A stretch of DNA of 63,992 nt, taken from the IMG/VR virus record IMGVR_UViG_3300048929_000258, positions 1-63,992 of that record; one strand, written 5' to 3'. Made by a program: the position numbers and the translations under genes. The DNA comes from a virus. Shown here piece after piece: positions 1 to 27,498 of the stretch. The notes under the pieces were generated by a model. The model worked only from the letters and a program-made list of their open reading frames with translations. It had not been told where the DNA came from and did no database searches. Positions within the stretch are counted from its first letter, which is position 1. Each line of letters starts with the position of its first letter.

Positions 1-653
1 TCGCTGAAATCGCGTCCGCCTTGGCTCCGGTGGTGCAGGACGCAGTTGCAGCGCACTTCGAAGCGAACCCCGTTCCTGCTGGCGAGAAGGGCGAGCGCGG
101 CGCGGACGGAAAGGACGGAAAGGACGGTGAGCAGATTAGCGATGAACAGATCGCGCAGCAGGTTGAGCGATTCTTTGAGATCAATCCTGCTCCAGCGGGG
201 CGCGACGGCAAGGATGGTCGCGACGGTCGCGACGCGGAGATGCTCACAGAAGATAAGATTTTCTCCCAAGTTGAACGCTACATGCGTCAGCATCCTGTCA
301 GTGATGGTGCTGATGGTCTTGGTTTTGACGATCTCAGTGTAGTGTACGATGGCGGTCGAAACATTACCTTGAGCTTCAGTCAAGGTGAGAACAAAAAGGA
401 ATTCACATTCAAGCTGAACATGATGATCTATCAAGGCGTGTTCAAACAAGGCACGACTTACGAGCAAGGCGATTCAGTTACGTTTGGCGGAAGCGTTTGG
501 ACAGCAAAGAAAGACACCAAGGAACGTCCAATGGAAGGAAGCGACTGGCAGCTGTCAGTGAAATGTGGCCGCGATGGTAAGGACGGTCAAAAGGGCGACA
601 AGGGCGAGAAAGGGCAAGATGGCAGGAACTGGGAACCGACGAAGGGGCTATGA
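1..653 (+). CDS. Collagen-like repeat / CBM5_12-like virion fibre protein, 3' part (same gene as 63205..63992, wrapping the circular junction)
   Basis: Frame 3 is open from nt 3. Nt 1-127 equal 63866-63992, so this continues the ORF that starts at ATG 63205 (about 437 aa on the circle). It has Gly-X-Y runs (GEKGERGADGKDGKDGE, GRDGKDGRDGRD, GRDGKDGQKGDKGEKGQDG). A YQGVFKQGTTYEQGDSVTFGGSVWTAKKDT...DWQL block at 429-554 resembles CBM5/12 sugar-binding modules. Confidence 0.8.
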   Translation, partial: AEIASALAPVVQDAVAAHFEANPVPAGEKGERGADGKDGKDGEQISDEQIAQQVERFFEINPAPAGRDGKDGRDGRDAEMLTEDKIFSQVERYMRQHPVSDGADGLGFDDLSVVYDGGRNITLSFSQGENKKEFTFKLNMMIYQGVFKQGTTYEQGDSVTFGGSVWTAKKDTKERPMEGSDWQLSVKCGRDGKDGQKGDKGEKGQDGRNWEPTKGL

Positions 654-1054
654 CGATGCTCATGCTTGTCTCTCCTGAGATTGTAAAGGCTCGCCTCAAG
701 ATCGACAATGACGTTGATGATGGAAACTTGGAGTTTGTAATTGCTGCAGCATCCAAGAGCATCATTACCTACATTGGCGACAACGTCGCACGAATCAGCG
801 ACAGTGCTGGCGATATCTTGACTGATACCAATGAAGTTGCCATCGACATCCCGGAAGACCTACAGATGGCAGTGTGCATGCTGGTGGGCATTTGGGTACG
901 TGATCCTGATGGAAAGAATATGGATCAGTGGCAGCAAGGATATTTGCCGTTCGCCGTCACATCGTTCATTTACACTGAATGGCATGAACCGTCGATGAGC
1001 CGCACAACTGATCTGAATCGCCGGCATGGATGGGACGATAATGGCTGCCGATAA
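650..1054 (+). CDS. Head-tail connector protein (gp6-like)
   Basis: 134 aa with an ATGA overlap on the upstream stop. VSPEIVKARLKIDNDVDDGNLEFVIAAASKSIITYIG fits the phage gp6-like head-tail connector N-terminal pattern. Confidence 0.7.
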   Translation: MTMLMLVSPEIVKARLKIDNDVDDGNLEFVIAAASKSIITYIGDNVARISDSAGDILTDTNEVAIDIPEDLQMAVCMLVGIWVRDPDGKNMDQWQQGYLPFAVTSFIYTEWHEPSMSRTTDLNRRHGWDDNGCR

Positions 1055-1406
1055 CACCTTCAGTGCAGGGCGCCTGCGGCATCGCGTTGACATTGAAAAA
1101 AATGTTCAGATGCAAGACACCAATGGTGATATGGTAGACAACTGGCAGCCATACTTGATGAATGTTGCTGCTGAAATTGCACCGTACAGCGCGCGTGAAT
1201 ACGTCGCAGCGCTTGCGATTCAATCTTCTGTGAATACCAAGATCACTATTCGCTTTCGCCCCAGCATCACTGCTGATATGCGAATTGTGCATCGTCCGAA
1301 GGGCGGCGATGAAACGATCTACAACATCGTCAAGCCAATTCGCGATCCTGAGACGGGGTTGGAATGGTTGCTCATTCTTACGAGCGATGGAGTCAATGAT
1401 GGCTAA
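1026..1406 (+). CDS. Head closure / head-tail adaptor protein (SPP1 gp16-like)
   Basis: 126 aa (ATG 1041 is an alternative start). GRLRHRVDIEK...DNWQP...VAAEIAPYSAREY...ITIRFRP..ITADMRIV fits the head-tail joining (Phage_H_T_join-like) pattern. Confidence 0.7.
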   Translation: MDGTIMAADNTFSAGRLRHRVDIEKNVQMQDTNGDMVDNWQPYLMNVAAEIAPYSAREYVAALAIQSSVNTKITIRFRPSITADMRIVHRPKGGDETIYNIVKPIRDPETGLEWLLILTSDGVNDG

Positions 1407-1899
1407 GTGGGCAGTATTGGCGAGCGGTCCCAGCATGAATGCTGAGATCGTTGAGCGTGTGCGCGGATTGCGCATCGCTGTCGTCAGTGACGTCTATAAG
1501 CTTGCTCCGCATGCTGACGTTCTTGTGTCGCAAGACAAAGCTTGGTGGAAAGCCCATCCTGAAGCGCTTAGCTTCGCAGGTCGCAAGTTCAGCGTCAATC
1601 CTGTTGATGGTGTTGAAGCATTTGAATGGCGTGATACGTATCCTCTGCTCACAACTTCTAGCAACAGTGGCTTGGTTGCTTGTCTTGTAGCTGAATGGAT
1701 GGGTGCAACAGAGATTGAGCTGTATGGATTTGACATGCATGGAAGTCATTATTTCGGAGATCATAAACCTCCATTGAAGAACACCACAGCAGATCGTTTT
1801 CGTATCATGATCAATCAATTTACTGATTGGCTTCCTCGTGCCCGCGTCATCAACCGGACGCCCGGCAGCGCGCTGACTTGCTTTGAAATGGTGGACTGA
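1399..1899 (+). CDS. DUF115 / Maf-like putative glycosyltransferase
   Basis: 166 aa from ATG 1399, with GGAG at 1389-1392 (ATG 1387 or 1396 also possible). VLASGPSMN and SNSGLVACLVAEWMGATEIELYGFDMHG resemble the GPS...LxGxD pattern of DUF115/Maf-type sugar transferases. By-eye call only. Confidence 0.45.
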   Translation: MAKWAVLASGPSMNAEIVERVRGLRIAVVSDVYKLAPHADVLVSQDKAWWKAHPEALSFAGRKFSVNPVDGVEAFEWRDTYPLLTTSSNSGLVACLVAEWMGATEIELYGFDMHGSHYFGDHKPPLKNTTADRFRIMINQFTDWLPRARVINRTPGSALTCFEMVD

Positions 1900-2648
1900 T
1901 GAAAGGCCGCGCTTGGATCGGACTCAAAGACACGCCTAACTACAGGCGTGATTCTTTTTCTGCAGGATTGAAGCGTGCAGGCTATCAGGTGGAACTTGAG
2001 ACCACTCTGCGTCCTGGAAACAATGACATTCTTGTTATTTGGAATCGTTTCGGTGCTGCTGAGGGTGCTGCTATTGCATTTGAAGCTGCTGGGCGTCCAG
2101 TGCTGGTTGCTGAGAATGGTTACTTGGGGAAAGAGTTCTGTGGTGAACCTTGGTATGCACTGAGCAGAAATCTACACAATGGAGCTGGCACTTGGGAATA
2201 TGAAGGTCCACAACGCTGGGACGCATTGGGAATTGAGCTGCCGCCATTTCGTACAAGCGGGAAAGAGATGGTGCTGTTGCCTCAGCGTTCTATCGGATCG
2301 AATGGCGTTGCGATGCCTCGCGGGTGGACAGAGGAAGCACAAGCACGCGTTAAGGCCCGTGTTCGCCCACATCCTGGGATACGCCCGGCAATTCCATTGG
2401 AAGTCGATCTTGGAAGTGCGCATTCTGTGTACACATGGGGGAGCGGCGCAGCGCTTAAGGCGATAGCAATGGGAATTCCTGCCTACTACGACATGCCTGC
2501 ATGGATAGGAGCGCCGGCAGCCGCGAAGTTAGGGGATAACCCTAACCGCAACGAAGTTGCTCGCCTAGATATGTTCCGCAGATTGGTTTGGGCGATGTGG
2601 CGACTTCGTGAGATTGAGAGTGGTGAAGCATTTGAGGTGCTGCTATGA
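1899..2648 (+). CDS. Putative glycosyltransferase (GT-B / capsule-biosynthesis-like)
   Basis: 249 aa with a 1-nt TGATG junction. AGRPVLVAENGYLG and the C-terminal TWGSGAALKAIAMGIPAYYD resemble GT-B nucleotide-sugar binding regions. The similarity is weak and by eye. Confidence 0.4.
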   Translation: MKGRAWIGLKDTPNYRRDSFSAGLKRAGYQVELETTLRPGNNDILVIWNRFGAAEGAAIAFEAAGRPVLVAENGYLGKEFCGEPWYALSRNLHNGAGTWEYEGPQRWDALGIELPPFRTSGKEMVLLPQRSIGSNGVAMPRGWTEEAQARVKARVRPHPGIRPAIPLEVDLGSAHSVYTWGSGAALKAIAMGIPAYYDMPAWIGAPAAAKLGDNPNRNEVARLDMFRRLVWAMWRLREIESGEAFEVLL

Positions 2649-3487
2649 GAATGCTGTTCACAGGCAATGGAACTGCAGGGTCTTGGAAGATTCGCGGCGA
2701 GCAGTTAGGCGGCGAGCTTGGTGCGATGATTCAACCACATGCTAGTTTTCAACACATCGTTCACTCCGATCTTATTGTTGTTGTGAAGCGTTGTCCGCAG
2801 AAGTTGTTAGATGCGCTTCGCCAAGCAAAGCGGAAATGGATATTTGATGTGGTTGATTTCTATCCACAACCTACTGCTGGTGCTTGGTCGCGTGATGAAG
2901 CTATCAATTGGGTGCGCAATCAGATCAAGAATATGAATCCAACAGCAGTGCTGTGGCCGAATCGAAAGATGATGGAAGACTGTAACGATGGACGTCCAGC
3001 AAAGGTGCTATATCATCATCATCGTCCTGGATTGCCGCGTCATCAAGTTCGTCAGCGCGTCGAAAAGGTCGCATATGAAGGCAGCGCTAAATACCTTGGA
3101 CGCTGGCAAAGCGATATCGAGATGGCTTGCCGTGCTCGCGGTTGGCAGTTTGAGGTCAATCCGTCTTGCTTATCTGATGCTGACATCGTCATTGCTGCAC
3201 GTGACGGCATTCACAATGGCTACGTACAACAGCATTGGAAGTCTAATGTGAAGCTTGCAAATGCGCAAGGTGCTGGTGTTGCATTTGTCGCACAGAAGGA
3301 AGACGGCTACACCGAGACATCTGCAGGAGAGGTTGGTTGGTTTAGCAGCCTCAGCGAACTACAGCATCAGTTCGATCTGCTTGACTCGATGACGATGCGA
3401 ACAATGGTACATCGTGGAATGCTGGCGAAAGCCTATCCTGTGGAGCGCGCTGCATCTGATCTGTTGGAGTTTGCTTGTGGACTGTGA
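2645..3487 (+). CDS. Putative glycosyltransferase (GT-B-like)
   Basis: 280 aa with an ATGA overlap. The C-terminal HWKSNVKLANAQGAGVAFVA fits the GT-B C-terminal pattern. Function is tentative. Confidence 0.4.
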   Translation: MRMLFTGNGTAGSWKIRGEQLGGELGAMIQPHASFQHIVHSDLIVVVKRCPQKLLDALRQAKRKWIFDVVDFYPQPTAGAWSRDEAINWVRNQIKNMNPTAVLWPNRKMMEDCNDGRPAKVLYHHHRPGLPRHQVRQRVEKVAYEGSAKYLGRWQSDIEMACRARGWQFEVNPSCLSDADIVIAARDGIHNGYVQQHWKSNVKLANAQGAGVAFVAQKEDGYTETSAGEVGWFSSLSELQHQFDLLDSMTMRTMVHRGMLAKAYPVERAASDLLEFACGL

Positions 3488-3494
3488 ATTGCTA

Positions 3495-4265
3495 ATGAGC
3501 AAAGATTTGAATGTGCGCGGCAGGAATATGCTGCAAGCACTGATTGATGCCGCTTCATATGCAGGCATCAAGGTCTATGTTTCCGAAATGTACGGCGCGC
3601 GCTCCCACAATTTGATGACATATGGACTTGGGCATCCTGTACGTCGTCAATGGAGTGAAGCGCACAAAGCGAGTGGCGGACGATTGATTGGGTGGGATTT
3701 GGGGTATTGGCTACGCGACGATTACATGCGTTTGACTATCAATGATGATCATCCACAACGTTTGTTGGAAGATCGTTCTCCAATGCGATTCGATTCATAT
3801 CACCTTCCGCTCCGCGAAGACTATCACCCAGAAGGTCCGATCATCCTCGCTGGCCTTGGTCGCAAGACGCGCGAAGAAATGCGACAGCGTGATCATCAAT
3901 GGGAACGCGAGATGTATTGCAAAATTCGCGCAGCCTATCCTCACAAGCAAATTCTTTACAAGCCCAAGAAAAAAGAATACATCTGCGACATGGAACCCTA
4001 TCTAGGAACCATTGAACAGGCATTGAATGGTGCTTCGTTGCTTGTTTGTAAACATAGCAACGTTGGTGTTGATGCTTGTTTTGCTGGTGTACCTGTTGTG
4101 TGTAGTGATGGTGCTGCTGCTGCGTTGTATGGCAACGATCTATTCAATCCGATCCGTCCAAGCTTCATGGAGCGCTTGCGCTTCCTTCGGAACTTGGCAT
4201 GGTGGCAATGGAAACCTTCAGAGGCGAAAGACGCATGGCTCTTCATAAAACAGGTTTGCAGCTAA
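3495..4265 (+). CDS. Putative glycosyltransferase (GT-B-like)
   Basis: 256 aa from ATG 3495 (frame open from 3414). LLVCKHSNVGVDACFAGVPVVCSDG is GT-B-like. Function is tentative. Confidence 0.4.
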   Translation: MSKDLNVRGRNMLQALIDAASYAGIKVYVSEMYGARSHNLMTYGLGHPVRRQWSEAHKASGGRLIGWDLGYWLRDDYMRLTINDDHPQRLLEDRSPMRFDSYHLPLREDYHPEGPIILAGLGRKTREEMRQRDHQWEREMYCKIRAAYPHKQILYKPKKKEYICDMEPYLGTIEQALNGASLLVCKHSNVGVDACFAGVPVVCSDGAAAALYGNDLFNPIRPSFMERLRFLRNLAWWQWKPSEAKDAWLFIKQVCS

Positions 4266-4753
4266 ACCTTGGCTGCGGCAGGCATGTATTGGATGGATGG
4301 TTCAATATCGATGTTCAACGCAGCCCGCGAGCGAAGCGTGATCCTGAGATGCTAAGCGATGTGCGGAAGATCGATCTGCCTGATGGTTGTGCTCAGACCA
4401 TAATGGCGATTCATCTTTGGGAGCATTTGTATCGCTGGGAATGTGACAACGTTATCAAGGAGTGGCGCCGATTGCTAGAAACTGGCGGTCAGCTAATCTT
4501 GGAGATGCCTGATCTGTACAAGTTCTGCGCGAACATCCTCGCGAACAAGACTGACCAGATGGGAATGTGGGGCTTGTATGGCGATCCAACCGAGGAAGAC
4601 CCTTACATGTGCCATCGTTGGGGTTGGTCATTTGCAACGTTGAAGCCTTTCTTGGAAGCAAATGGATTCACAAACTGTGAAGAGGAAGCTACTCAGTGGC
4701 ATCGTTGCGGTAAGTTGGAGCGAGACTTTCGAATTGTAGCGAGAAAGGCATGA
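4235..4753 (+). CDS. Class I SAM-dependent methyltransferase
   Basis: 172 aa from ATG 4235 (frame open from 4199). LNLGCGRHVLDGWFNIDV (motif I), IMAIHLWEHL and GGQLILEMP are typical of Methyltransf_11-like enzymes. Confidence 0.65.
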   Translation: MALHKTGLQLNLGCGRHVLDGWFNIDVQRSPRAKRDPEMLSDVRKIDLPDGCAQTIMAIHLWEHLYRWECDNVIKEWRRLLETGGQLILEMPDLYKFCANILANKTDQMGMWGLYGDPTEEDPYMCHRWGWSFATLKPFLEANGFTNCEEEATQWHRCGKLERDFRIVARKA

Positions 4754-5436
4754 AGGTCTATATCGGATATGATTCAAGAGAAGATGCGGCTTATGAAGCT
4801 GCAAGCAAAACGCTGCTTGAGCATTCTCCGCATTCGACCGTTACGAAGTTGGATGCTGAACGTTTGACAGCATCCGGTCTGTTGCGTCGCCCGATTGATC
4901 GTCGCTCAGGTATTTACGATTTGGTCAGCAACGCTCCTTGCTCCACTGATTTCAGCAACACTCGCTTCATGGTGCCTATCTTGTCTCAGACAGGCTGGGC
5001 ACTATTTGTGGATTGTGACATGCTGTTCTTCGCTGATGTTGATGAGCTATTTGGTTTAGCTGATCCGCAGAAAGCTGTAATGGTGGTGAAGCATAAGCTG
5101 GTAAGTGAGTTTGGAACGAAGATGGACAACCAGCCTCAAACGTCATATGCTCGCAAAAACTGGTCAAGTGTGATGCTGTTCAATTGTGATCATCCAGCGA
5201 ATCGTCGCTTGTCGCTCGATGATGTCAACAATCGTCCTGGTCGCGATCTGCATGCGTTCTACTGGCTACACGATCAAGAGATTGGCGAACTACCCGCTGG
5301 ATGGAACTGGCTAGTAGATGTACAGCCTAAGCCTGATGATGTAAAGGTGGCCCATTTCACGATGGGTGGTCCTTGGATCAAAGGATGGCGCGGCAGCCCC
5401 AATGATGAGTTGTGGGTGAGTTGCGCAGGAGGTTAA
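4750..5436 (+). CDS. GT-A fold glycosyltransferase (GT8-like)
   Basis: 228 aa with an ATGA overlap. VYIGYDSRE and the DxD context WALFVDCDMLFFADVDELF fit GT8-like retaining glycosyltransferases. Confidence 0.6.
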   Translation: MKVYIGYDSREDAAYEAASKTLLEHSPHSTVTKLDAERLTASGLLRRPIDRRSGIYDLVSNAPCSTDFSNTRFMVPILSQTGWALFVDCDMLFFADVDELFGLADPQKAVMVVKHKLVSEFGTKMDNQPQTSYARKNWSSVMLFNCDHPANRRLSLDDVNNRPGRDLHAFYWLHDQEIGELPAGWNWLVDVQPKPDDVKVAHFTMGGPWIKGWRGSPNDELWVSCAGG

Positions 5437-5437
5437 T

Positions 5438-5950
5438 GTGGCTGGCAACTTCAAAATTCAAGGCGCGAAGGAAGCGATTGACCGCTTGAAGAATTTGAAC
5501 CTTCGCATGCAACGTAAGTACATCGCTCGCGCTACACGCAAAGGTGCCAACGTCATCAGAACTGCAGCACAAGAGTCTTGGAAGCGAATTGATAATCCAA
5601 AGACTCCAAACAAAATCTGGCAGTATGTGACGGTGCGTTCCAATTCTCGGCTCGGCCGCCAATATGGCGGGATCGCGATGCTGATTGGTATGCGCGGCGG
5701 ATCGCAAGATGTGTCTGAGAAGAAATACAAGGACAACAAGGGGAACCGCAAAGCTAAAAAGGTCGGGCAGACCTATAGCGCAGGTTCTCCGGTATACTAT
5801 TGGCGGTTTCTGAACCTTGGTACGCGCAAGTATCGGCCCGGTTTGCATTTGATGGAAACTGCATTGACAAATAATGGTGAAAAAGCCGCAAGCACGATGG
5901 TTGATGATCTGAACGCTGGGATCGATGAAGCGCTATCAGCAGGGGGTTGA
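5438..5950 (+). CDS. HK97 gp10-family neck / tail-component protein
   Basis: 170 aa with a GTG start after AGGAGG. KIQGAKEAIDRLKNL, ARATRKGANVIRTAAQ and YYWRFLNLGTRK fit the HK97 gp10 family. Confidence 0.65.
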   Translation: MAGNFKIQGAKEAIDRLKNLNLRMQRKYIARATRKGANVIRTAAQESWKRIDNPKTPNKIWQYVTVRSNSRLGRQYGGIAMLIGMRGGSQDVSEKKYKDNKGNRKAKKVGQTYSAGSPVYYWRFLNLGTRKYRPGLHLMETALTNNGEKAASTMVDDLNAGIDEALSAGG

Positions 5951-6339
5951 TCGTGGCAATCAAATTTGAACCGCCAATGTTCGATACTCTGTCAGCAAGC
6001 GCTACTCTTCAAACATTGCTTCGTGATGGTAACAAGTTCAAATGTTTCGCAGCTGATGATGTACCGCAAGGAACGAAACCGCCGTATGTTGCATGGTCTA
6101 TTGTTGGAGGCTCACCTGAGAACTTCCTTGGTGCGTCTGCAGATATGGATGGTTTTGATACACAAATAGACGTCTACGCAAAGACGCAAGCAGACTGCCG
6201 CGAGATTGTTGCCGCAATCGACGCAGCCATTGACGGTAAAGCCTACATCACCAATTGGTTGGGACAGGGCAACGATCAAGAGAACACAAAGCTTGATTTT
6301 CGTTCCTTCTCGATCAGCTGGTTGGTACCACGTCAATAA
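5947..6339 (+). CDS. DUF3168-type tail terminator / neck protein
   Basis: 130 aa (start TTG 5947 or GTG 5953). PPYVAWSIVGG...QIDVYAKT fits the DUF3168 pattern. It sits immediately upstream of the tail tube gene. Confidence 0.6.
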   Translation: MIVAIKFEPPMFDTLSASATLQTLLRDGNKFKCFAADDVPQGTKPPYVAWSIVGGSPENFLGASADMDGFDTQIDVYAKTQADCREIVAAIDAAIDGKAYITNWLGQGNDQENTKLDFRSFSISWLVPRQ

Positions 6340-7178: not shown

Positions 7179-7486
7179 CAAAGGCAGATGAGGTCTGGTT
7201 TGAATTGGTGATGAATGGAATTGGCGGCAGGACGGTAGAGGAAGCGCAGAGAAACATGAGTTGGGCTGAAGCGATGCAATGGATGGAGTTCATTGGAAAG
7301 CGCGGAACCCTCAACTTTGGTATGCGGCTTGAAATCCTTATGTCGCAATTGATGGAATGCGTGATGGCTGGAAAGAAAAAGCGCGATGGAAGCGCATATA
7401 CCTTTAAGGACTGGGCAATCCATTTAGACAAACCAGAACTGACCATTGAGAACGCGATCAGCGCGCTTGGTGCGAAGGAGAAATAG
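6840..7486 (+). CDS. Tail assembly chaperone frameshift product (gpGT-like, -1 PRF at 7169-7175)
   Basis: After a -1 slip on A_AAA_AAC, the -1 frame is open from 7175 to stop 7486 (CTG ACA AAG GCA GAT ...), giving a fusion of about 215 aa. This is the conserved G/GT arrangement upstream of tape measure genes. Confidence 0.7.
7169..7175 (+). promoter_or_regulatory. -1 programmed ribosomal frameshift slippery site A_AAA_AAC
   Basis: Zero-frame codons are GGA AAA AAC TGA at 7167-7178. The X_XXY_YYZ heptamer sits one codon before the stop. Confidence 0.7.
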
Positions 7487-7488
7487 CA

Positions 7489-9939
7489 ATGGCTGCTAAT
7501 CGTTCACTTGGTACACTGACCCTTCAGCTCATTGCTCAGATCGGTGGGTTCACCAAGCCACTGGACGATGCGGCTAGCAAGTCTCAGAAGACGTTCGACA
7601 CCATCGAGAAGTCAGCAGAAGCATTTAGCGACCAGCTGAAAGACGTTTTTGCCAATGCCTTTGCCGGCTTGGGGCTGGTCGCTTCTCTCGACAAGTTCGT
7701 TGAGTCGGTCAAAGAATCGCTCAACGTGATGGATGAGATGAGTAAGTCTGCGCAGCGCGTAGGCTTGTCGACTGAAGCGTTCTCATCGCTTGCCTTTGCC
7801 GCGAAACTTGCAGACGTCAACACTGACGCTTTGCAGGGTACGCTCGGCAAACTCATCAAGAACCTCGCGGCAGCGCAAGACCCTGCATCGCAGCAAGCAA
7901 AAGTATTCTCAGCACTTGGCATCTCTACCAAGACTGCCAGCGGCCAGATTCGCGATAGCGAGTCGGTGCTTAAGGACTTCGCAGATCGTTTCAAGGAGCT
8001 GGATGGAAGCCCTGAAGCGATTGCTGCTGGAATGGTTATCTTCGGAAAGAGTTTCCAAGACATCATCCCGTTGCTCAAGGATGGTGCTGATGGCATCTCT
8101 GACGCGCAAGCTGAAGCGGTCAAGTTGAACCAAGTCATCAGCACGGACAATGGTAAGGCTGCTGAAGAATTCAATGACAACCTTACGCGCCTTCAGAGCG
8201 CGGTCGAAGGTGTGTACAATGCAGTTGCAGCAAAGTTGCTCCCCCAGCTAGAGAACTGGAGTGACGAGACGGTTGCGCTGGTTGAGGAAAACGGAAAACT
8301 AGATGATGTTGCTACTGCATTGTATGATGGCCTTCAAGCGCTCGGCGCAATCGCTAATGTAGTTGCTGCCGGGTTCAAGTTTATCACTGCTGCGGTGCAG
8401 ACGACTGCGACTGCCGCTGCCGCATTGGTAACGATTTGGAAGCAGACTGACAATAACAATCCGTTTGATCAGGACATGTGGAAACAGGTTGGTCAATCTG
8501 TTACCAACATGAATGATCAGATCAAGGATATTTGGGCGAATGCCGCCAAAGGCATTGATGACTCGTTCGACGCGGCCGGCAACAACATCAAGCGCATCCA
8601 AGGTCAGCTTGTAGACCTTAACAAGCAGCAGCTGCAAAAAGGCGCGAACAATTTCATTGATAGCATCTTTGGAACCGATCAAGACGCTGACGATAAGAAA
8701 GCTAAGCTTACGAAGAATCTGCAAGACGTCTTCGGGAACTCAGACAAGTACAGTAAGGAAGCACAAAAGGCTGCCGATGAACTCGCCGCAGCCTATGCTA
8801 AGTTGAATGATGCTGTTGCGAAGACAACTGAGTCGCTCGATCCCAATCAGCAAGCCTATGCGAAGTATGCGGAGACCGTTCGCAATATCGATCAACTTGG
8901 CGCTGAGGCTATCAAGAAGGGCGGTGATGTTGTCTATGTTCAGCAGCAGGTTGCGCAAGCTGTAGATGCTGCACAGAAGAAGCTCGCGCAAGACCTAGCC
9001 GCGCCGATGCAGGCAGCGCAGGCTTACGCTGATGCTCTCCAGTCTCAGCTTGATGCTCACAAGCAGCTGATTCAAACGCAAGTCGATGCCATTGGCATGG
9101 GCACGAAGGAAGCTGCCAATCAGCAAGCGCTCGCGAAAGTCTATCAGGATGGCGTCAAGGCTATCTCTGATTACCAAAAGGCATATGATGAGAGCGTAGC
9201 AAAGGGCAAGCCCAACGCGACGCCTGATCAGTATCAGGCTCAGTTGAAGTCGCTGCAGGATTATTGGTCGCAGTACTACCAAGACACTAAGGACGGTCAG
9301 GATGCTGTAGACAGACAACAAGCCAACTGGATGAATGGAGCTATCTCCGCTTGGCAGAACTTCTTCGATGAGCAGTCGAATGCTGCGAAGATTGCGCAAG
9401 GACTCACCAACGATTTCTTCAATGATGCGTCTAGCGACCTATCAGACTTCATTTCTGGCACCAAGAGTGCCAATGATGCGTTGAAGGATTTCATCAACAA
9501 CTTCGAACAGCAAATCACTCAAGCTGTCTCCAAGCAGCTGCTCAAGAATCTGTTCAACATTGGTAACGATAGTGGCAGCAGCAGTGGCGGCTGGCTATCT
9601 CAATTGCTTAGCTCCTTTAACAACGGTGGCAGCAGCGGAAGTTCATCTAGTGTTTCCGATGCAATCGGACAATATGGTTGGGCGAACGGTGGCACTGTTC
9701 CTGCTGGCGCTTTCGGCCGAGTTGTCGAGCGCGGCCCGGAATTGCTTTCTGTTGGCGGTGAGGACTACTTGATGATGGGTAGTCAGACTGGTCGTGTAAC
9801 GCCGAACAATCAGTTGACTGGCGGTGGAGTGAACGTCACTAACAACTTCAACCTCGCGGCACCAACCAATCCCCTAACGCAGTCACAGATTGCCAACAAG
9901 GCGACTTATGAGCAGCGCCGCGCAGCGAGGCTTTCCTAA
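7489..9939 (+). CDS. Tape measure protein
   Basis: 816 aa, the largest tail ORF, with an A/Q/K-rich coiled-coil composition. It directly follows the G/GT chaperones. There is a Ser/Gly-rich stretch near the C-terminus (GNDSGSSSGG...GGSSGSSSSVSD). Confidence 0.85.
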   Translation: MAANRSLGTLTLQLIAQIGGFTKPLDDAASKSQKTFDTIEKSAEAFSDQLKDVFANAFAGLGLVASLDKFVESVKESLNVMDEMSKSAQRVGLSTEAFSSLAFAAKLADVNTDALQGTLGKLIKNLAAAQDPASQQAKVFSALGISTKTASGQIRDSESVLKDFADRFKELDGSPEAIAAGMVIFGKSFQDIIPLLKDGADGISDAQAEAVKLNQVISTDNGKAAEEFNDNLTRLQSAVEGVYNAVAAKLLPQLENWSDETVALVEENGKLDDVATALYDGLQALGAIANVVAAGFKFITAAVQTTATAAAALVTIWKQTDNNNPFDQDMWKQVGQSVTNMNDQIKDIWANAAKGIDDSFDAAGNNIKRIQGQLVDLNKQQLQKGANNFIDSIFGTDQDADDKKAKLTKNLQDVFGNSDKYSKEAQKAADELAAAYAKLNDAVAKTTESLDPNQQAYAKYAETVRNIDQLGAEAIKKGGDVVYVQQQVAQAVDAAQKKLAQDLAAPMQAAQAYADALQSQLDAHKQLIQTQVDAIGMGTKEAANQQALAKVYQDGVKAISDYQKAYDESVAKGKPNATPDQYQAQLKSLQDYWSQYYQDTKDGQDAVDRQQANWMNGAISAWQNFFDEQSNAAKIAQGLTNDFFNDASSDLSDFISGTKSANDALKDFINNFEQQITQAVSKQLLKNLFNIGNDSGSSSGGWLSQLLSSFNNGGSSGSSSSVSDAIGQYGWANGGTVPAGAFGRVVERGPELLSVGGEDYLMMGSQTGRVTPNNQLTGGGVNVTNNFNLAAPTNPLTQSQIANKATYEQRRAARLS

Positions 9940-10541: not shown

Positions 10542-11449
10542 GTGGCCGTCTCATCCCGACTCCCATCCAGCTAGCCGTTGACAGTCCAGCGTCAACGCTC
10601 ACGCGGCTGCTACGCGTGCTGTTGGCGAATGGAACGAGTTATGGATTGTGCATGAGCAACCAAGATGTCATCTATGATCACGGTGATGGTCCGATCACTT
10701 ATGTTGCTACCAACGGTTTCGATCCAAGCGCATTTAGCTCGGATATTGCCTACTCAGTAGACAATGCTGAAGGCTACGCGCTCATCAGCGATGATGTGCC
10801 TGGTGTTACTCAAGAAATGGTTGATGCTGGAGTTATGGATAGTGCACAATGGGTTTGCTACTATGTTGACTATCTGAATCCTGCAACTGGAAGTGCGGTT
10901 ATCCTCGATGCTGGCGATATAGGACAAGTGCGAACGCAATATGGGATGCTCTGGATTCCTGAGCTGCTGTCTTACATTATGCGGCTCAAGCAAACAATTG
11001 GCGATGTTTGGTCGCGTACCTGCCGCGCTGATTTCGGATCGCCCGCGCCTAGTCCTCATGGCTGCGGCATTGATGCGGATGCGCTCTGGCAGAACTTTAC
11101 GGTGGTGTCGGTTGGTGCAGAAAATGATCGCACATTTACTGCTAGTGGCCTTACGCAAGACCCTGACAAGCCGTTCTATCCAGGGAAGGTAGATTGGCTG
11201 ACAGGAGACAACGCTGGGCGTCGAGTTGCGACTGAATCCTTTACAGTGGATGGAAGCAATGGGGACATTACACTATTGGAAACGGTTTCTTATCCAATAC
11301 AGGTCGGTGACACCGGTCGTCTTCGTCCAGACTGCAACAAGACCAAGGATCAGTGCGACAAGTATGACAACTATGTCAACATGAAAGCTGAGCCGCTTAT
11401 TCCGGTAGGCGATACTGCTGCGATCCAGATTCCGGGAGCCCAGACGTGA
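10538..11449 (+). CDS. Tail protein, DUF2163 + BR0599-type C-terminus (RcGTA g13-like)
   Basis: 303 aa with an ATGA overlap. The C-terminal CNKTKDQCDKYDNYVNMKAEPLIP Cys motif matches the g13/BR0599 type. Confidence 0.65.
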   Translation: MSGRLIPTPIQLAVDSPASTLTRLLRVLLANGTSYGLCMSNQDVIYDHGDGPITYVATNGFDPSAFSSDIAYSVDNAEGYALISDDVPGVTQEMVDAGVMDSAQWVCYYVDYLNPATGSAVILDAGDIGQVRTQYGMLWIPELLSYIMRLKQTIGDVWSRTCRADFGSPAPSPHGCGIDADALWQNFTVVSVGAENDRTFTASGLTQDPDKPFYPGKVDWLTGDNAGRRVATESFTVDGSNGDITLLETVSYPIQVGDTGRLRPDCNKTKDQCDKYDNYVNMKAEPLIPVGDTAAIQIPGAQT

Positions 11450-11889
11450 CGAAGGATAGCCAAAAAGCAGTATTCGTCGCCCATGCACGTAGCCTTCTAG
11501 GCGCGCGCTGGCGCCATCGGGGTAGGAAGCCATGGGCGCTCGATTGCGTCGGTCTCGTAGTGTTGTCTGCAAGGGCTGCAGGATGGCCGGTTCAGGACCA
11601 AGATCACTACGGGCGCGAGCCTTGGGATGATAGACTGCGAAAGGAGATGCGCCGGCAGCTTGGTGAACCGATCTTGGATAAAGCAGACGCTGAACCGGGC
11701 GACGTGGCGCTGGTGCGCTGGTATGCCAAAGAACCTTCTCATGTTGCCATTATCGCAGATTACATCCACGGTGGTTTGTCGCTGATTCATTGCGAGAACT
11801 TGCACGGCTGCGTTGAGCATGGGATGGACGATTACTATGCGTCTTGCGTGATGGAGGTATATCGGCCATGCGCCAAGTTCTGCCAGTAG
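11446..11889 (+). CDS. NlpC/P60-family peptidase (RcGTA g14-like)
   Basis: 147 aa with a GTGA overlap. ARSLLGARWRHRGRKPWALDCVGLV holds the NlpC/P60 catalytic Cys context. Confidence 0.7.
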   Translation: MTKDSQKAVFVAHARSLLGARWRHRGRKPWALDCVGLVVLSARAAGWPVQDQDHYGREPWDDRLRKEMRRQLGEPILDKADAEPGDVALVRWYAKEPSHVAIIADYIHGGLSLIHCENLHGCVEHGMDDYYASCVMEVYRPCAKFCQ

Positions 11890-12869
11890 TTGGCGCCGCT
11901 ATCGGCGCATATTTTGGCGGTCAAGCAGGCGCACAGATTGGCTGGGCTATTGGCTCTGTCATTGGCAACGCTGTTGATCCTCAGGTCATCAAGGGACCAT
12001 CACTAGGCGATCTGTCACAGCAAACCGCTCAAGAAGGCGGCCCGCGCGGCATCGTGTTTGGTTTATCGCAACCGATGTCTGGTAACATCGTTTTTTGTAG
12101 CAAGCCAGTCATCAAGACTGTCGAACAACAAAGCGGTAAAGGTGGCGGACCAATCACAGAGTCGCAAAAGGTCTATCGCACCTATGCGATTGGGATTTGT
12201 GAAGGACCAATCACCGCGATCATTCGCGTCTGGAAGAATGGTAAGCTGGTGTATGACGCTCGCCCTGGCGGAGATGCTAGCAACAATGCAAAGTTCCTTG
12301 CTGCTACTCGCATTTTCCTTGGCGACTATGCACAAATGCCTTCACCAGACATTGAAGCAATTGTTGGCGCTGGCGAAGCCCCGGCGATGCGAGGCACTTG
12401 CTACATTTGCCGACCGAATGAAGATTTGACTGATCAAGGCGGTGCAGTTCCGCAGTTTGTTTTCCAAGTGCTGCGTTGCGAAGGGCAACTGTACACCAGT
12501 CGCCCATATGCAGTGGAAGTGCTGGATGATATCAGTACGAATATGGTGACGATTAAGGTCGAGCCGCAGCCTTATGTGATTCAGGCTCCTGATGTTATGC
12601 AGAGCGTCATGCAGTTGTTGAGCATCACTCGTTTTGGCGGACAAGTCAATTTCACCTTGCCGAATGAAGACAAGGTACAATCGACCTTGCAGATACTGAG
12701 CATCACTCGCTTTGGTTCGGAAGTGAATTTGCTGATGCCGAATGAAGACAAGGTTCAATCGACCGTCACTATTACATCTATCACAAGATTCGGCGGCCAA
12801 GTTGGCTATACCACACAGACAGATGAAGTTCAAGCTTCCATTGAAATTTTGTCCATTACTCGGAGTTAG
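11868..12869 (+). CDS. Central tail / host-specificity protein, N-terminal J-like part with a repeat tail
   Basis: 333 aa from ATG 11868 (frame open from 11844). GPRGIVFG, YRTYAIGICEGPI and VWKNGKLVYD resemble the N-terminal region of lambda J / RcGTA g15-type proteins. The C-terminus carries 3.3 tandem repeats (LSITRFGGQV...). Confidence 0.6.
   Translation: MRQVLPVVGAAIGAYFGGQAGAQIGWAIGSVIGNAVDPQVIKGPSLGDLSQQTAQEGGPRGIVFGLSQPMSGNIVFCSKPVIKTVEQQSGKGGGPITESQKVYRTYAIGICEGPITAIIRVWKNGKLVYDARPGGDASNNAKFLAATRIFLGDYAQMPSPDIEAIVGAGEAPAMRGTCYICRPNEDLTDQGGAVPQFVFQVLRCEGQLYTSRPYAVEVLDDISTNMVTIKVEPQPYVIQAPDVMQSVMQLLSITRFGGQVNFTLPNEDKVQSTLQILSITRFGSEVNLLMPNEDKVQSTVTITSITRFGGQVGYTTQTDEVQASIEILSITRS
12609..12869 (+). 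repeat. In-frame tandem repeat, period 78/78/75 bp (about 26 aa, SITRFG core)
   Basis: The SIT codons recur at 12621, 12699, 12777 and 12852. Repeat units are LSITRFGGQVNFTLPNEDKVQSTLQI, LSITRFGSEVNLLMPNEDKVQSTVTI, TSITRFGGQVGYTTQTDEVQASIEI and LSITRS. Confidence 0.85.
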
Positions 12870-16113: not shown

Positions 16114-16962
16114 ATGAGCGACTCTCCTAGCAACGAAATTCCCTATGTGCCGCAGGACACCACCGATCCTGCTGCCGGGCTAAATCTGTCTATCGATGTG
16201 ATTGATGCGCTGCTAAACACGCGCGTGATTGATATGACGCATAGTGCGCCTCCTGGCGGAACGCCTAGCGATGGCGACATGTACATGGTGAAGGCTACAG
16301 GCACAGGAGCTTGGGCTGGGCACAACAATGCTATCGCTCGATATGTCGCAGCAAGCAACACTTGGAAGTTTTTTGCTGCTGGCGTACAGGCTTGGCTGTT
16401 CATCAATCAAGATGATGGAAATTTGTACCGCTGGTTTAGCGGGTCATGGTCTGCTGCTAGTGGCGTGGGCGATGCACCGATGGATGGACTTCTCTATGCG
16501 CGTCGTAATGGCAACTGGCAATCGATTCCACAGACCAGTGGCGTGGAGAGCGTTAATGGAGAAACGCCAGACAGCTCCGGCAATATTGAGCTGACGTTCT
16601 TACAATCGCTGGTTGCTGCTTGTTCTGATGAGAGCACAGCGTTGACAACTGGAACGGCAAAGGTTACTTTCCGCAATCCGTATGCGACGGCCTTTCACAT
16701 CACCCATGTTAAGGCTTCATTGACAACTGCACAAGCTACAGGTTCAGTGCTTACTGTCGACATCAATGAAGCTGGCGCCAGCATCCTTTCGACAAAGCTC
16801 ACTTTCGACAATACGGAAAAGACGACAGAGAGCGCTGCGACGCCTCCTGTTGTGTCTGATAACTCTATCGCAGCGGATGCGGAGATTACAGTTGACATTG
16901 ATCAGGTTGGCGATGGTACTGCCAAGGGCTTGAAGGTCTACATCATTGGGTATCCGCTGTGA
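16114..16962 (+). CDS. DUF2793-domain tail fibre protein
   Basis: 282 aa. PPGGTPSDGDMYMVKATGTGAWAGHNNAIARYVAASNTWKFFAAGVQAWLFINQDDGNLYRWFSGSW is the DUF2793 signature. Confidence 0.65.
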   Translation: MSDSPSNEIPYVPQDTTDPAAGLNLSIDVIDALLNTRVIDMTHSAPPGGTPSDGDMYMVKATGTGAWAGHNNAIARYVAASNTWKFFAAGVQAWLFINQDDGNLYRWFSGSWSAASGVGDAPMDGLLYARRNGNWQSIPQTSGVESVNGETPDSSGNIELTFLQSLVAACSDESTALTTGTAKVTFRNPYATAFHITHVKASLTTAQATGSVLTVDINEAGASILSTKLTFDNTEKTTESAATPPVVSDNSIAADAEITVDIDQVGDGTAKGLKVYIIGYPL

Positions 16963-18992
16963 TCATCAATCCTTACATTTTCAGTTCTTCTGCTGATCCG
17001 TATTGGGATCGTGTTCGCTTGCTCCAGAACTTTGAAGGAGCAAATGCTAGCACTGCATTCTACGATGATGTCAGCGGCGATCCGTGGAGTTTTTCAGGCC
17101 CAACAATTTCTACAGATCAAGCCAAGTTCGGCTCAACCTGCGGCAAGTTCGCAGCGAGCAATGCTTATCTTGATTCTCCTTGCGCTGCATTCAACAAGAA
17201 TGATTTCACAATTGAGTGTTTCGTCTACTTGACAGCAACTAGCGCATCACTTGGCGCATTCATTTTCGATATGCGTCCAACAGGGCAAAATGGTGCATAT
17301 CCTGCACTGTACATTTTGAATGGGGCCGTTCGGTACTATGTAAATACTGCTGATCAAATAACGCAAGCCAGCGGTATGAGTACTGGCGCTTGGCATCATG
17401 TTGCGCTTTGTCGGGCGAGCGGCGTTACGAAATTGTTTGTGGATGGTACACAGGTCGGATCGAACTACACTGATACGAATGTGTATCAGGGATACAAGAT
17501 GAGGGTTGGCGCAAACCAGAACAATATTGGAGCGAGCGCTTTTGCACTTGGCTATATGGATGCGTTTCGCGTGACTGTAGGGGTTGCTCGCTACACAGCT
17601 GCTTTTACTCCGCCGTCCGTTCCATATCTGCAAGGTCCGCGCTACGATCCTTGGTTTGGCCAAGTAGCAGCACTCATGCATATGGATACGCCTGCGGACA
17701 CTTCCGGTCACATCAGCGATCAGACAGGCAAGGTCTATGCGATAAATGGCAATGCTGCAATCTCGACGCTTCAGAAGAAGTTTGGCGCAGCATCAGCATC
17801 ATTTGATGCTTCATTGACGAGTCATATTGACAGTCCGCTCAGCGGAGAGTTCTCTTTCTTTGCGGGGGACCTTACCATTGAGATGTGGGTGTACAAGCCT
17901 ACATTCACCACACAGTACAACTTCTTTGAAGTCAACACGACTCAAGGTGCTAACCCGTCTGATCGCATCGTGCTGTACTTCCCGAATGCTTCAGCTAATC
18001 CTCGCTTCTTCAACAACAGTGATAGAATTAGCTCTAGCATTGCTGTGTCTGCAAACACTTGGACACATATCGCACTCACGCGTGAATCTGCAGCTAGTAA
18101 CAACATGCAACTTTTCATTAATGGTGCTTCTGCAGGTACAGTATCACTTGGAACCTCTTTCCAGGAAGGTCGCATTCGCATTGGAGGCGACGGAACCACT
18201 GCCGCAATAAATGGTTACATCGATGAGCTGCGCATCACCAAGGGCGTTTGTCGCTACAGCGCTCCATTCCCAGCTCCCAACCAACCGCACGCAGATGTGC
18301 TAGCTGGGAATACAAGTGACTTGTTAAGCAACATCGTCAAGTCGCTTATGAATATGCGCGGCAGCAGTGGTGCTACATCCTTGATTGATGAGAAGGCTCG
18401 CACTTGGACGACGGGTGGTGATGTCAAGATTGACACTACTCAAGGATTCAACGCGGCAGTGTTCGATGGAACAGGAGATAGTTTGACAACTGCCAATGTA
18501 CAAGCAGACTTTGATTGGTGGATTGATGATTATACAATTGAGGCTTGGATCAAAGCTTCCAGCTTCAGCAGCTGGGAATATATCGATGGAAGCAATCACA
18601 ATCCGCGCCTTCACGGAAATATGACCGCAGCGTCATCTACCAGCAATTACTGGTCATTTGGCCCCATTGCTGGCGGTCAGCTGAAATTTTATTATTACAA
18701 TGGTTCATCGAATTCGGTTGTGAGCACAGCAACAGTGCCAACTGGACAGCTTACACATATTGCAATGACGAAGGCTGTTGATGGAATTCGCATGTTCATT
18801 GATGGAGTGCTAGTATCGGGGCCCACTGCTATATCTGGAACGCCTCAAAGTTCAACTGGCGTGACTCAAACCATTGGCGCGTTTAACAGTGGCAGTATTA
18901 CAGGCTACGTCAAAGCAACTCGCGTCACCAAAGGCAAAGCGAGATATCTTGCAAATTTCACCCCGCAAGCTGCACCCTATCCAACCTTCTGA
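16959..18992 (+). CDS. Tail fibre / receptor-binding protein with three LamG (concanavalin-like lectin) repeats
   Basis: 677 aa with a GTGA overlap. A block recurs three times: FTIECFVYL...WHHVALCR..GVTKLFVDGTQVGS, then LTIEMWVY...WTHIALTR...LFINGASAGT, then YTIEAWIKA...LTHIAMTK...MFIDGVLVSG. Confidence 0.65.
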   Translation: MIINPYIFSSSADPYWDRVRLLQNFEGANASTAFYDDVSGDPWSFSGPTISTDQAKFGSTCGKFAASNAYLDSPCAAFNKNDFTIECFVYLTATSASLGAFIFDMRPTGQNGAYPALYILNGAVRYYVNTADQITQASGMSTGAWHHVALCRASGVTKLFVDGTQVGSNYTDTNVYQGYKMRVGANQNNIGASAFALGYMDAFRVTVGVARYTAAFTPPSVPYLQGPRYDPWFGQVAALMHMDTPADTSGHISDQTGKVYAINGNAAISTLQKKFGAASASFDASLTSHIDSPLSGEFSFFAGDLTIEMWVYKPTFTTQYNFFEVNTTQGANPSDRIVLYFPNASANPRFFNNSDRISSSIAVSANTWTHIALTRESAASNNMQLFINGASAGTVSLGTSFQEGRIRIGGDGTTAAINGYIDELRITKGVCRYSAPFPAPNQPHADVLAGNTSDLLSNIVKSLMNMRGSSGATSLIDEKARTWTTGGDVKIDTTQGFNAAVFDGTGDSLTTANVQADFDWWIDDYTIEAWIKASSFSSWEYIDGSNHNPRLHGNMTAASSTSNYWSFGPIAGGQLKFYYYNGSSNSVVSTATVPTGQLTHIAMTKAVDGIRMFIDGVLVSGPTAISGTPQSSTGVTQTIGAFNSGSITGYVKATRVTKGKARYLANFTPQAAPYPTF

Positions 18993-27193: not shown

Positions 27194-27498
27194 GCCAAGC
27201 GCTCCAGATAGAAATGCCATACAAACTCGCCAGACTGCACAGTGCTGATGTATTCCAGATTGCCATCGGGAATCTCTTGCCCTGTACCGACGACATGAAC
27301 AATCTGCCTGTAGATGTTTCGCTTCTGTTTCGGTTGAGGCGTCAAATCTTGAACAGATGACACAAACTCCATTTCAGTTTCAGCCCACATGCAAAATGCG
27401 TTGCGCTGGAGTTGAACTGATAGAGGCTTGATGGGATGAAAGGTACGAAGCTCTTGTGCATCCGTCAATCGAAGTTCGAACTTGTGAATGGTCTTCAT
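27190..27498 (-). CDS. Hypothetical protein
   Basis: 102 aa (MKTIHKFEL...) with ATGA overlaps at both ends. Confidence 0.55.
   Translation of the reverse strand: MKTIHKFELRLTDAQELRTFHPIKPLSVQLQRNAFCMWAETEMEFVSSVQDLTPQPKQKRNIYRQIVHVVGTGQEIPDGNLEYISTVQSGEFVWHFYLERLA

Follow-up and report, generated by a model that had tools for sequence, protein, structure and literature searches.

The six-gene island and its setting

The DNA analysed here, called the window below, is the whole 63,992-nucleotide stretch of virus record IMGVR_UViG_3300048929_000258, a circularly assembled phage genome of about 64 kb. Six plus-strand open reading frames (ORFs), named here g1 to g6, fill positions 1399-5436, between the genes for a head-closure protein and a neck protein. 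An earlier note on this sequence had described them as a glycan-building cassette in the head-tail joining module, and had proposed that they glycosylate the virion. In profile and structure searches all six products fall in sugar- or methyltransferase superfamilies.

The upstream border is the head-closure (Hc1) gene at 1026-1406 (plus strand; Pfam Phage_HCP, 5.2e-25; phrog_25), and the downstream border is the HK97-gp10-like neck gene (Neck1/tail-completion) at 5438-5950 (plus strand; HK97-gp10_like, 6.6e-4; phrog_5, 2.4e-12). These matches, together with the ORF layout, confirm six co-oriented, tightly packed genes within the joining module. The head-closure gene and g1 overlap by 8 nucleotides, with GGAG preceding the ATG at 1399, while g6 and the neck gene meet at TAAT-GTG with AGGAGG upstream. 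Recognisable Shine-Dalgarno sequences are present at most of the six-gene junctions. Coupling by ATGA or TGATG overlaps, which had been claimed for the whole island, is found at g1/g2 (TGATG), g2/g3 (ATGA) and g5/g6 (ATGA). It does not extend to g3/g4, which are separated by a 7-nucleotide gap, or to g4/g5, which overlap by 31 nucleotides from ATG 4235 or by 10 nucleotides from TTG 4256.

The GC content of the island is that of its flanks. A promoter and terminator scan gave no sites above the level of shuffled sequence, and none at the island borders. None of the six proteins contains a transmembrane-like segment by a hydrophobic segment criterion (KD19 > 1.6). The island is embedded in the late structural operon, and is probably co-transcribed with the morphogenesis genes.

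g1 is a minimal GT42/DUF115-like protein

The product of g1 (1399-1899, plus strand), the anchor of the island, is a minimal protein of 166 residues that resembles the GT42/DUF115 group (sialyltransferases and the core of Maf proteins). It matches PHROG 4603 (phrog_4603), 'alpha-2,3-sialyltransferase', at 9e-25. When a profile of 52 family members was compared with the Protein Data Bank (PDB), the Campylobacter GT42 sialyltransferases CstII and CstI (1ro7, 2x61 and others) were matched at E ~9e-4 over 57 residues; as single sequences, g1 and g6 gave nothing useful against the PDB. The match of g1 to MptE-like/DUF115 (PF01973) is sub-threshold (E 0.027, 14.7 bits against a cut-off of 34.6 bits), as are those of its homologues. 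A library of 1.84 billion proteins contains 1650 cluster representatives of the family, and most members are 160-200 residues long. Residues G10-P11, D46, W49-W50, S90, G110, G115 and H117 are invariant even in homologues of 25-35% identity, and are also found in ORF010 of phage PAJU2, orf7 of phage D3 and gp527 of phage CcrBL9.

Maf proteins are soluble, multi-domain proteins of about 400-650 residues with flagellin-binding flanking domains, and attach CMP-activated nonulosonic acids directly to serine or threonine of a self-assembling structural protein. What g1 has in common with these flagellin glycosyltransferases and with CstI and CstII is the nucleotide-binding core (GPS...NSG...G-x-D), together with a conserved histidine. 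However, at about 166-200 residues in the family, g1 lacks the N- and C-terminal domains of Maf, and its similarity to CstII spans about 57 residues at E ~1e-3. The DUF115/Maf-like assignment made in the earlier note therefore stands at the superfamily level, but g1 is not a Maf protein, as it consists of a 166-residue core and its PF01973 match lies below the gathering cut-off.

The g1 domain also occurs in fusions. It is N-terminal to collagen triple-helix repeats in five cluster representatives (P0369, P0374, P0381, P0383 and P0388), and some of these fusions also carry PKD and Laminin-G lectin domains. For two of the five, on longer contigs (L013, 534-2474; L014, 3747-5366), the fusion gene occupies the position of g1 just downstream of head closure, and is followed by g2, g3 and other island genes. 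Further fusions join the g1 domain to methyltransferases, GT2 or a TOD1/MUCI70 glycosyltransferase-like domain, which is the pattern expected of an enzyme.

One reading of these data is that g1 is mainly a structural or anchoring protein of the virion, in which the sialyltransferase-like fold serves as a capsid- or neck-binding fibre base or as a sugar-binding decoration; the transferases encoded after it would then form an accessory module modifying g1, the fibre or something else. On this reading it is telling that g1 is the sole invariant gene of the island, that in one relative (L057) it stands alone between head closure and neck, that its domain forms the N-terminus of collagen/PKD/lectin fibre-like proteins, and that its PAJU2 homologue, ORF010, is annotated as a structural protein. 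Yet the active-site-type residues GPS, D46, G110-x-D112 and H117 are invariant in very distant homologues, the fusions included, and the fusions to transferase domains again speak for an enzyme. A mainly structural role for g1 is distinctly unlikely in our view, but it could go together with virion glycosylation, as the two do not strictly exclude each other.

g2 and g4 are paralogues that resemble Kdo transferases

The g2 gene (1899-2648, plus strand) encodes a 249-residue protein that structure comparison and motif content place among small GT-B enzymes, probably of the CMP-sugar (Kdo-transferase-like) type. Its AlphaFold2 (AF2) model has a predicted local distance difference test (pLDDT) score of 96. 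In a Foldseek search of the PDB with this model, KpsC and WbbB took ranks 1-17 and KrkA ranks 24-30 (probability 1.0, E 1e-6, template modelling (TM) score 0.46-0.56), and other folds matched much less well. Residues R156-P157-H158-P159, which constitute a (K/R)XHP motif, are invariant in 54 sequences of the family. In sialyl- and Kdo-transferases this motif binds CMP (PMC12887879). Inspection of the same 54 sequences at the QXXXD site showed Q129-R-S-I-G133, with G133 invariant and the nucleophilic aspartate absent. A double-displacement mechanism of the WbbB/KpsC type is therefore improbable for g2. The window protein contains no Pfam domain; it has 1475 homologues, and DUF6716 matches 33 of 54 family members.

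The 256-residue product of g4 (3495-4265, plus strand) is a paralogue of g2. Alignment of the two family profiles with hhalign gave a probability of 98% and E 2.2e-13 over 249 columns, which is the full length. A relationship between g4 and g3 was ruled out by the same method (probability 0.1%). The HP motif is missing from g4, which reads Y-K-P-K in the window protein and Y-R-P-K in the family consensus, and in the hhalign alignment GLGxK stands at the QXXXD position of g2. Invariant residues of its own include K158, H187-S188-N189 and D193. Searches of PDB sequences with the g2, g3 and g4 profiles gave nothing useful.

In fold, g2 and g4 are paralogous KpsC/WbbB-like GT-B enzymes, an assignment that comes from the predicted structure for g2 and by paralogy for g4. 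g2 has the same reduced GT-B architecture as the retaining beta-Kdo transferases KpsC (GT107), WbbB (GT99) and KrkA (GT140), together with the (K/R)XHP motif, and the g2/g4 pair is reminiscent of the two GT107 modules of KpsC, which add alternating linkages. Unlike these enzymes, g2 lacks the QXXXD nucleophile, g4 lacks the HP motif as well, and both proteins are only about 250 residues long; moreover, KpsC, WbbB and KrkA act at the membrane on lipid-linked glycans. The earlier note had counted three GT-B-like proteins; the superfamily holds for all three, but they are of two kinds, the g2/g4 pair and an unrelated GT4-like g3.

g3, g5 and g6

The product of g3 (2645-3487, plus strand) is predicted from its AF2 model and Foldseek to be a compact GT4-like GT-B protein of 280 residues that uses NDP-sugars. 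The model has a pLDDT of 97, and its best matches in the PDB are Gtf3, SenB, SdgB and GtfC (TM 0.6-0.72). The protein also matches viral proteins annotated 'Glycosyl transferases group 1', and the Pfam family Glyco_trans_1_2 is matched below the cut-off by g3 of the window (0.067) and of a relative, L001 (0.006). Gtf3/GtfC and SdgB, which extend O-glycans, glycosylate low-complexity regions of surface proteins (serine-rich-repeat and SD-repeat adhesins) before export, and are cytoplasmic GT-B enzymes, as is proposed for g3. Their identity to g3 is only 10-13%, however, and the likeness in fold is a generic GT4-like one with little bearing on the acceptor.

The g5 product (4235-4753, plus strand, with an alternative start at TTG 4256) carries the S-adenosylmethionine (SAM) motif LNLGCG. 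The class I SAM-dependent methyltransferase proposed earlier is upheld, as Methyltransf_11 is matched above the Pfam cut-off (6.5e-5, 23.9 bits against 21.2 bits). A weak MftM-like match in NCBIfam is not informative. A second SAM methyltransferase is encoded at 26582-27220 on the minus strand, beside the DNA polymerase gene; it matches phrog_6636 at 2e-42, and g5 matches the same PHROG weakly.

For g6 (4750-5436, plus strand), the proposal of a GT8-like GT-A glycosyltransferase with a DxD motif is sustained at the superfamily level by D88-x-D90 and a C-terminal H202, both invariant across the family. The protein matches phrog_28018 at 1.8e-48 and the GT8 profile at 0.0023 (18 bits against a cut-off of 24.3 bits); four of ten homologues match the latter, down to 4.9e-9. 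Phage homologues are annotated as nucleotide-diphospho-sugar transferases. In unrelated phages, too, the gene is found near methyltransferase genes: a g6 homologue directly follows a methyltransferase gene in DLP_6 (L016, 4379-5648), such a pair lies just downstream of the capsid gene in podovirus MW202512.1 (L011, 8291-9684), and in Mosig (L015, 3587-5660) the homologue is one gene after two methyltransferases.

The island is widespread and variable around g1

At the DNA level the window has no megablast match among GenBank phages, and blastn gave only an 83-nucleotide match in the tail-tube gene. Homologous cassettes are present on dozens of phage contigs, and prophages of Lysobacter, Dokdonella and Inquilinus have them too. 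In all cases they lie within the late structural operon and in its orientation, at sites of at least four kinds. Many independent loci have this gene set, with amino-acid identities of 25-65%, so that its occurrence in the window is more than chance.

A search with the head-closure protein identified seven IMG/VR loci whose structural proteins are 26-46% identical to those of the window, and all that are long enough carry the six genes between head closure and tail terminator. The order in these L001-type loci is g2-MT-g3-g4-oxygenase-g5-g6-g1, where MT is a methyltransferase. This eight-gene version thus adds a SAM methyltransferase and a 2OG-Fe(II) oxygenase, which are also found in the cassettes of L004, L007 and L022 but are both missing from that of the window. 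The L001 oxygenase (11401-11997) matches PF13640 (2OG-FeII_Oxy_3), a family of the prolyl-4-hydroxylase type, at 7.8e-19. The two additional enzymes could hydroxylate protein or sugar.

With the tail-tube protein, 24 closer relatives of the window phage were recovered. The closest, L040, has g1 to g6 in the order of the window. L038 contains g1, g2, a g4-like gene, a GT2-like gene, a methyltransferase gene and g6, and in L053 g1 is accompanied by methyltransferases, a second DUF115 protein and a protein with a DxD-type motif. A large group that includes L042 and L047 has g1 with a 278-residue protein and a methyltransferase; the 278-residue protein has no Pfam match, and resembles GT9 heptosyltransferases only in an N-terminal GLGD motif. 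Overall, the genes that follow g1 range from none to about seven transferases.

Other sites are used as well. In a prophage of Lysobacter sp. 5GHs7-4 and in one metagenome-assembled genome the six-gene set lies between the capsid gene and the adaptor gene. In L029, with neighbours assigned by eye, the island follows a tail-completion-like ORF and precedes presumed tail genes and the tape measure gene. A scan of 185,579 species genomes yielded 19 loci, mostly in Pseudomonadota, one of them in the isolate Inquilinus sp. CA228. In most of these loci g1 lies next to g2, and in many g6 is downstream; several differ in between, for example by extra methyltransferases and a GT9 heptosyltransferase-like protein.

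The earlier note had regarded the island as an unusual insertion in the connector genes. It is not: the island recurs across many Pseudomonadota phages, and relatives that share the connector genes have the cassette too, so that no insertion peculiar to this genome is seen. From gene content and order, the island is an old, widespread, mobile and hypervariable module of the structural operon in which g1 is constant, and it is present in temperate phages and prophages as well.

Cultured phages that carry the island

Several cultured phages carry the island, among them Caulobacter phages (Bertelyvirus and CcrColossus). In CcrBL9, gp527-gp522 correspond to g1, g2, a g2/g4-like paralogue, g6, a methyltransferase and a GT9-like protein, and lie between the tail genes and the downstream endolysin gene. 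Tblastn of g1, g2 and g6 against 50,697 phage records found no Mycobacterium phage.

The Pseudomonas phage PAJU2 is a relative of the window phage: its protease-capsid fusion (ORF003) is 56% identical to that of the window, its tail tube 58% and its portal 46%. Between its head-closure and neck genes are ORF010 (g1; AP009624.1, our locus L061, 5968-6537), ORF011 and ORF012 (a methyltransferase). PAJU2 and D3 have the same cassette, which consists of g1, a GLGD protein of the 278-residue type and a methyltransferase. In D3 (NC_002484.2, our locus L062) it is split between 5585-6043 and 7382-8777: the capsid gene and orf6.5 precede orf7 (g1), whereas orf12 (the homologue of the 278-residue protein) and orf13 (the methyltransferase) are flanked by head closure/orf11 on one side and the gp10-like orf14 on the other. 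In the D3 record orf7, orf12 and orf13 are still hypothetical or only auto-annotated. A literature search, which did not include the original PAJU2 paper, found no paper on the island genes in Caulobacter phages, D3 or PAJU2.

The presence of the island in prophages, and a gene content that varies as it does in O-antigen and capsule loci, bear on a second explanation, in which the enzymes act on a glycoconjugate of the host envelope (lipopolysaccharide (LPS) core, O-antigen or the Kdo linker of a capsule). The receptor would be altered or capped, blocking superinfection or the re-adsorption of progeny to debris. The closest structural relatives fit this well, being the LPS and capsule enzymes KpsC, WbbB and KrkA, with GT8 and, in variants, GT9 heptosyltransferase likenesses in addition; GT8 enzymes include LPS glucosyl- and galactosyltransferases. 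The island, however, is no separately promoted moron but lies within, and is apparently co-transcribed with, late morphogenesis genes. The phage encodes replication proteins of its own, and the ORFs scanned include no integrase. The cassette contains no membrane component, flippase or polymerase, and the fusions of g1 to fibre proteins point to the particle, as does the 'structural protein' label of PAJU2 ORF010. We regard an envelope acceptor as unlikely.

A particular form of this idea, the lysogenic O-antigen conversion locus, had been rejected in the earlier note, and we agree. Gtr-type conversion uses the membrane-embedded proteins GtrA, GtrB and Gtr(type), encoded near the att/integrase region. 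The cassette is unlike such a locus because it encodes no membrane proteins and sits among structural genes, as it does in D3, PAJU2, Caulobacter phages and all the metagenomic relatives. The known seroconversion genes of D3 (iap, wzy-beta and oac) form a separate locus. The absence of an integrase or repressor, also remarked on in the earlier note, holds for the about 30 of the larger non-structural ORFs that were scanned.

Candidate acceptors in the particle

The late region of the window runs in the order TerS, TerL, protease-capsid fusion, small S/N-rich ORF, portal (61775-63208), collagen-like fibre, adaptor (650-1054), head closure, the six genes and HK97-gp10-like neck. Downstream of the neck gene are genes for the tail terminator, a lambda-type tail tube, the tape measure and gene transfer agent (GTA)-like distal tail proteins. 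One of the distal-tail proteins (16959-18992, plus strand, 677 residues) has three Laminin_G_3 (ConA-like lectin) domains and is likely to function in receptor binding or adhesion.

The collagen-like fibre is a candidate either as acceptor or as a partner of g1. Its gene is continuous across the ends of the window, with the 5′ part at 63205-63992 and the 3′ part at 1-653, both on the plus strand. It contains seven short GXY runs and a perfect 150-nucleotide tandem repeat. The 3′ part, to which PAJU2 ORF007 is homologous, encodes a conserved C-terminal domain with the motif YxGVFxxGxxYxxGDxVTxGGSxW, which we read as carbohydrate-binding-like. Most relatives of the window have a collagen-like or fibre gene with this C-terminal domain upstream of g1. 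The first and last 127 nucleotides of the window (1-127 and 63866-63992) are identical, and fall in the 150-nucleotide repeat, present as 2.5 perfect copies at 63625-63992; the point of closure, the copy number of the repeat and the exact genome length are therefore uncertain.

Two further candidates are encoded upstream of the portal gene. The small post-capsid protein (61457-61750, plus strand) has, on inspection of its sequence, an S/N-rich basic tail and is a candidate acceptor only. Similar small proteins follow the major capsid protein in L008 (1689-1967), L010 (8529-8816), L018 and D3 (orf6.5); by eye, those of the window, L008, L010 and D3 share a short N-terminal region and a basic, low-complexity tail rich in S, A and N. 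The capsid protein (59354-61381, plus strand; Peptidase_S78 and Phage_capsid), likewise only a candidate, is a fusion of an S78 prohead protease to an HK97-type capsid protein, and has by eye an S/T/G/N-rich insertion near its C-terminus. The portal comes after this fusion in the gene order, an unusual arrangement that PAJU2 shares. With the tail tube, the fibre, the small S-rich protein and the capsid protein make up the candidate acceptors; the Ser-rich C-terminus of the tape measure, listed in the earlier note, likewise stays a candidate only.

Glycosylation of collagen hydroxylysine, suggested by the fibre and the L001-type oxygenase, was considered and rejected: the window has no such oxygenase, there are cassettes with no detectable fibre homologue (L008 and L010), and the fibre homologue of PAJU2 has no GXY runs. 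A sequence that follows each collagen run, (T/A)S(P/V)xxD(D/E), was also examined as a glycosylation sequon, and looks more like a helix N-cap box.

DNA as a possible substrate

In a third explanation the enzymes would glycosylate and methylate the phage DNA just before packaging, as a measure against restriction. Phage glycosyltransferases whose ancestry resembles that of LPS or teichoic-acid enzymes, heptose-adding ones among them, hypermodify DNA, and hypermodification clusters can adjoin structural genes (Pyle et al. bioRxiv 10.1101/2023.12.21.572611). The transfer of groups to DNA is a late event that precedes packaging (PMC13326640). Besides a DNA polymerase, the window phage encodes a MazG-like pyrophosphatase, PNK-like proteins and a divergent ThyX, and g2, g3 and g4 are mildly basic. 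Isoelectric points were dropped as a discriminator, as they do not separate DNA from protein acceptors.

Nevertheless, the known pathways need a hydroxymethylase or hydroxylase of the ThyA family, or a C5-methyltransferase with a TET/5mYOX enzyme, whose genes usually lie in one cluster with those of the glycosyltransferases. ThyX (PF02511) is the one thymidylate synthase detected, and neither C5-methyltransferase nor TET was found in the cassette or in the about 30 of the larger ORFs that were scanned. The methyltransferases of the cassettes are of the Methyltransf_11/23 type, the oxygenase of the relatives matches 2OG-FeII_Oxy_3 and not Tet_JBP, and T4 beta-glucosyltransferase is not among the top 50 structural matches of g2 or g3. 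The island is also present in HK97-like temperate prophages (Lysobacter, D3 and PAJU2), and g1 is fused to a fibre protein. Modification of DNA is a serious rival to virion glycosylation, but in our view it is distinctly unlikely to be the function of the island.

The thymidylate synthase homologue, at 30773-31525 on the minus strand, was considered as a hydroxymethylase and ruled out as such, being ThyX (PF02511, 7.5e-30). It reads R-T-R...A-Q-R in place of the usual ThyX motif, R-H-R...S-Q-R, and its activity may be altered. A seventh putative glycosyltransferase is encoded at 51583-52686 (plus strand) in the replication region, just upstream of the gene for a D5-like primase-helicase. It is a GT1/EryCIII-like GT-B protein with the motif 'HHGSAG', matches the rhamnosyltransferase 9ke1 at 1.3e-4, and could target DNA or a small molecule.

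A model for glycosylation of the virion

We favour, with modest confidence and from the gene content and its setting, the view that the island encodes late-expressed, soluble cytoplasmic enzymes whose target for glycosylation and methylation is a component of the assembling virion. The fusions of the g1 domain to collagen, PKD and Laminin-G domains link it to virion proteins, and in the PAJU2 record ORF010 (g1) is labelled 'structural protein' with no 'putative', as are only the major capsid and major tail proteins among the other features of the 17 listed. The six genes would form a glycan-assembly line in the cytoplasm, translated from the late morphogenesis transcript. g1 would be the initiating transferase, placing the first sugar on a conserved acceptor that it recognises, much as Maf does on flagellin. 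The (K/R)XHP motif of g2 and the GT42-like core of g1 suggest that both use a CMP-activated ulosonic acid. Neither the cassettes nor the approximately 30 larger non-structural ORFs scanned contain a gene for nucleotide-sugar synthesis, so that CMP-Kdo of the host would be the simplest donor. g3 and g6 would add hexose or HexNAc from UDP-sugars of the host, g4 would add a further residue, and g5 may O-methylate the glycan; in variants with a GT9 match the donor could be ADP-heptose. The product would be a surface glycan under diversifying selection, which would account for the different genes that close relatives carry after g1. By analogy, such a glycan may serve in shielding, stability or adhesion.

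Several points weigh against virion glycosylation. For the window phage, D3, PAJU2 and CcrBL9 a glycan on the virion is a prediction from gene content. No acceptor stands out among the candidates, and since the cassettes of L008 and L010 have no detectable fibre homologue beside them, the collagen-like fibre cannot be a universal acceptor; none was detected in the Lysobacter-type loci either. The donor sugars are assigned by fold and motif only, with g2 lacking the QXXXD nucleophile and g4 the HP motif. A paper on the cryo-electron microscopy of the D3 capsid contains no word beginning 'glyc-', although which particles were imaged is not established, and it mentions decoration proteins for other phages only. 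The label of PAJU2 ORF010 as a structural protein is of unconfirmed basis. Late expression would also fit transferases that modify DNA before packaging (PMC13326640), and, because the enzymes resemble those of LPS and capsule synthesis, a lipid-linked or envelope acceptor is possible.

As far as a literature search found, glycosylation of the particle by phage-encoded enzymes has been demonstrated only for mycobacteriophages. There, operons of clusters O, F and others glycosylate the capsid and tail-tube C-termini, and this alters antibody recognition (Freeman et al. 2023, cited through PMC11600133 and PMC12619734). Like those operons, the island combines a cluster of tandem phage glycosyltransferases with a methyltransferase (there an O-methyltransferase) in the structural or late region (PMC11600133), although here glycosylation of the virion is a prediction. 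The tblastn searches with g1, g2 and g6 detected no homology between the two systems. The mycobacteriophage enzyme families differ from the GT42-like and HP-motif, Kdo-transferase-like enzymes of the island, which is also set apart by its Pseudomonadota hosts, its site within the connector genes and its hypervariability around one anchor gene.

In giant viruses (chloroviruses and the fibrils of Mimivirus), virus-encoded enzymes build unusual glycans on capsid and fibre proteins independently of the glycosylation pathways of the host. These glycosyl- and methyltransferases are cytoplasmic, as is proposed for those of the island, but giant viruses have eukaryotic hosts, far larger gene sets and their own nucleotide-sugar synthesis.

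More tentatively, and with considerable doubt, the island may be a hypervariable 'virion serotype' locus in many Pseudomonadota phages, including D3, PAJU2 and the giant Caulobacter phages, that makes a glycan like an LPS core (Kdo, heptose, hexose and O-methyl groups). g1, perhaps riding on the particle or on the collagen-like fibre, would prime a structural protein, and an exchangeable set of Kdo-transferase-like, heptosyltransferase-like, GT4, GT8 and methyltransferase enzymes would extend the glycan from nucleotide sugars of the host, leaving the particle coated in host-like sugars.

Phage-encoded glycosylation of the virion with different enzymes, hosts and genomic logic would be the candidate novelty of the island. 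If the model is correct, phages with glycosylated virions would include a large group that infects Gram-negative bacteria, among them Pseudomonas aeruginosa, a host that is a therapeutic target. Their enzymes would belong to families with no relationship to those known, probably with ulosonic-acid chemistry, and orf7, orf12 and orf13 of D3 would acquire a function. The hypothesis is approachable in cultured, genetically tractable phages, namely D3 and PAJU2 of P. aeruginosa and CcrBL9 and CcrColossus of C. crescentus. Variable genes around one anchor would imply a particle 'serotype' under diversifying selection, and such a serotype would bear on the immunogenicity, stability and adsorption of these phages and on their evasion of defences.

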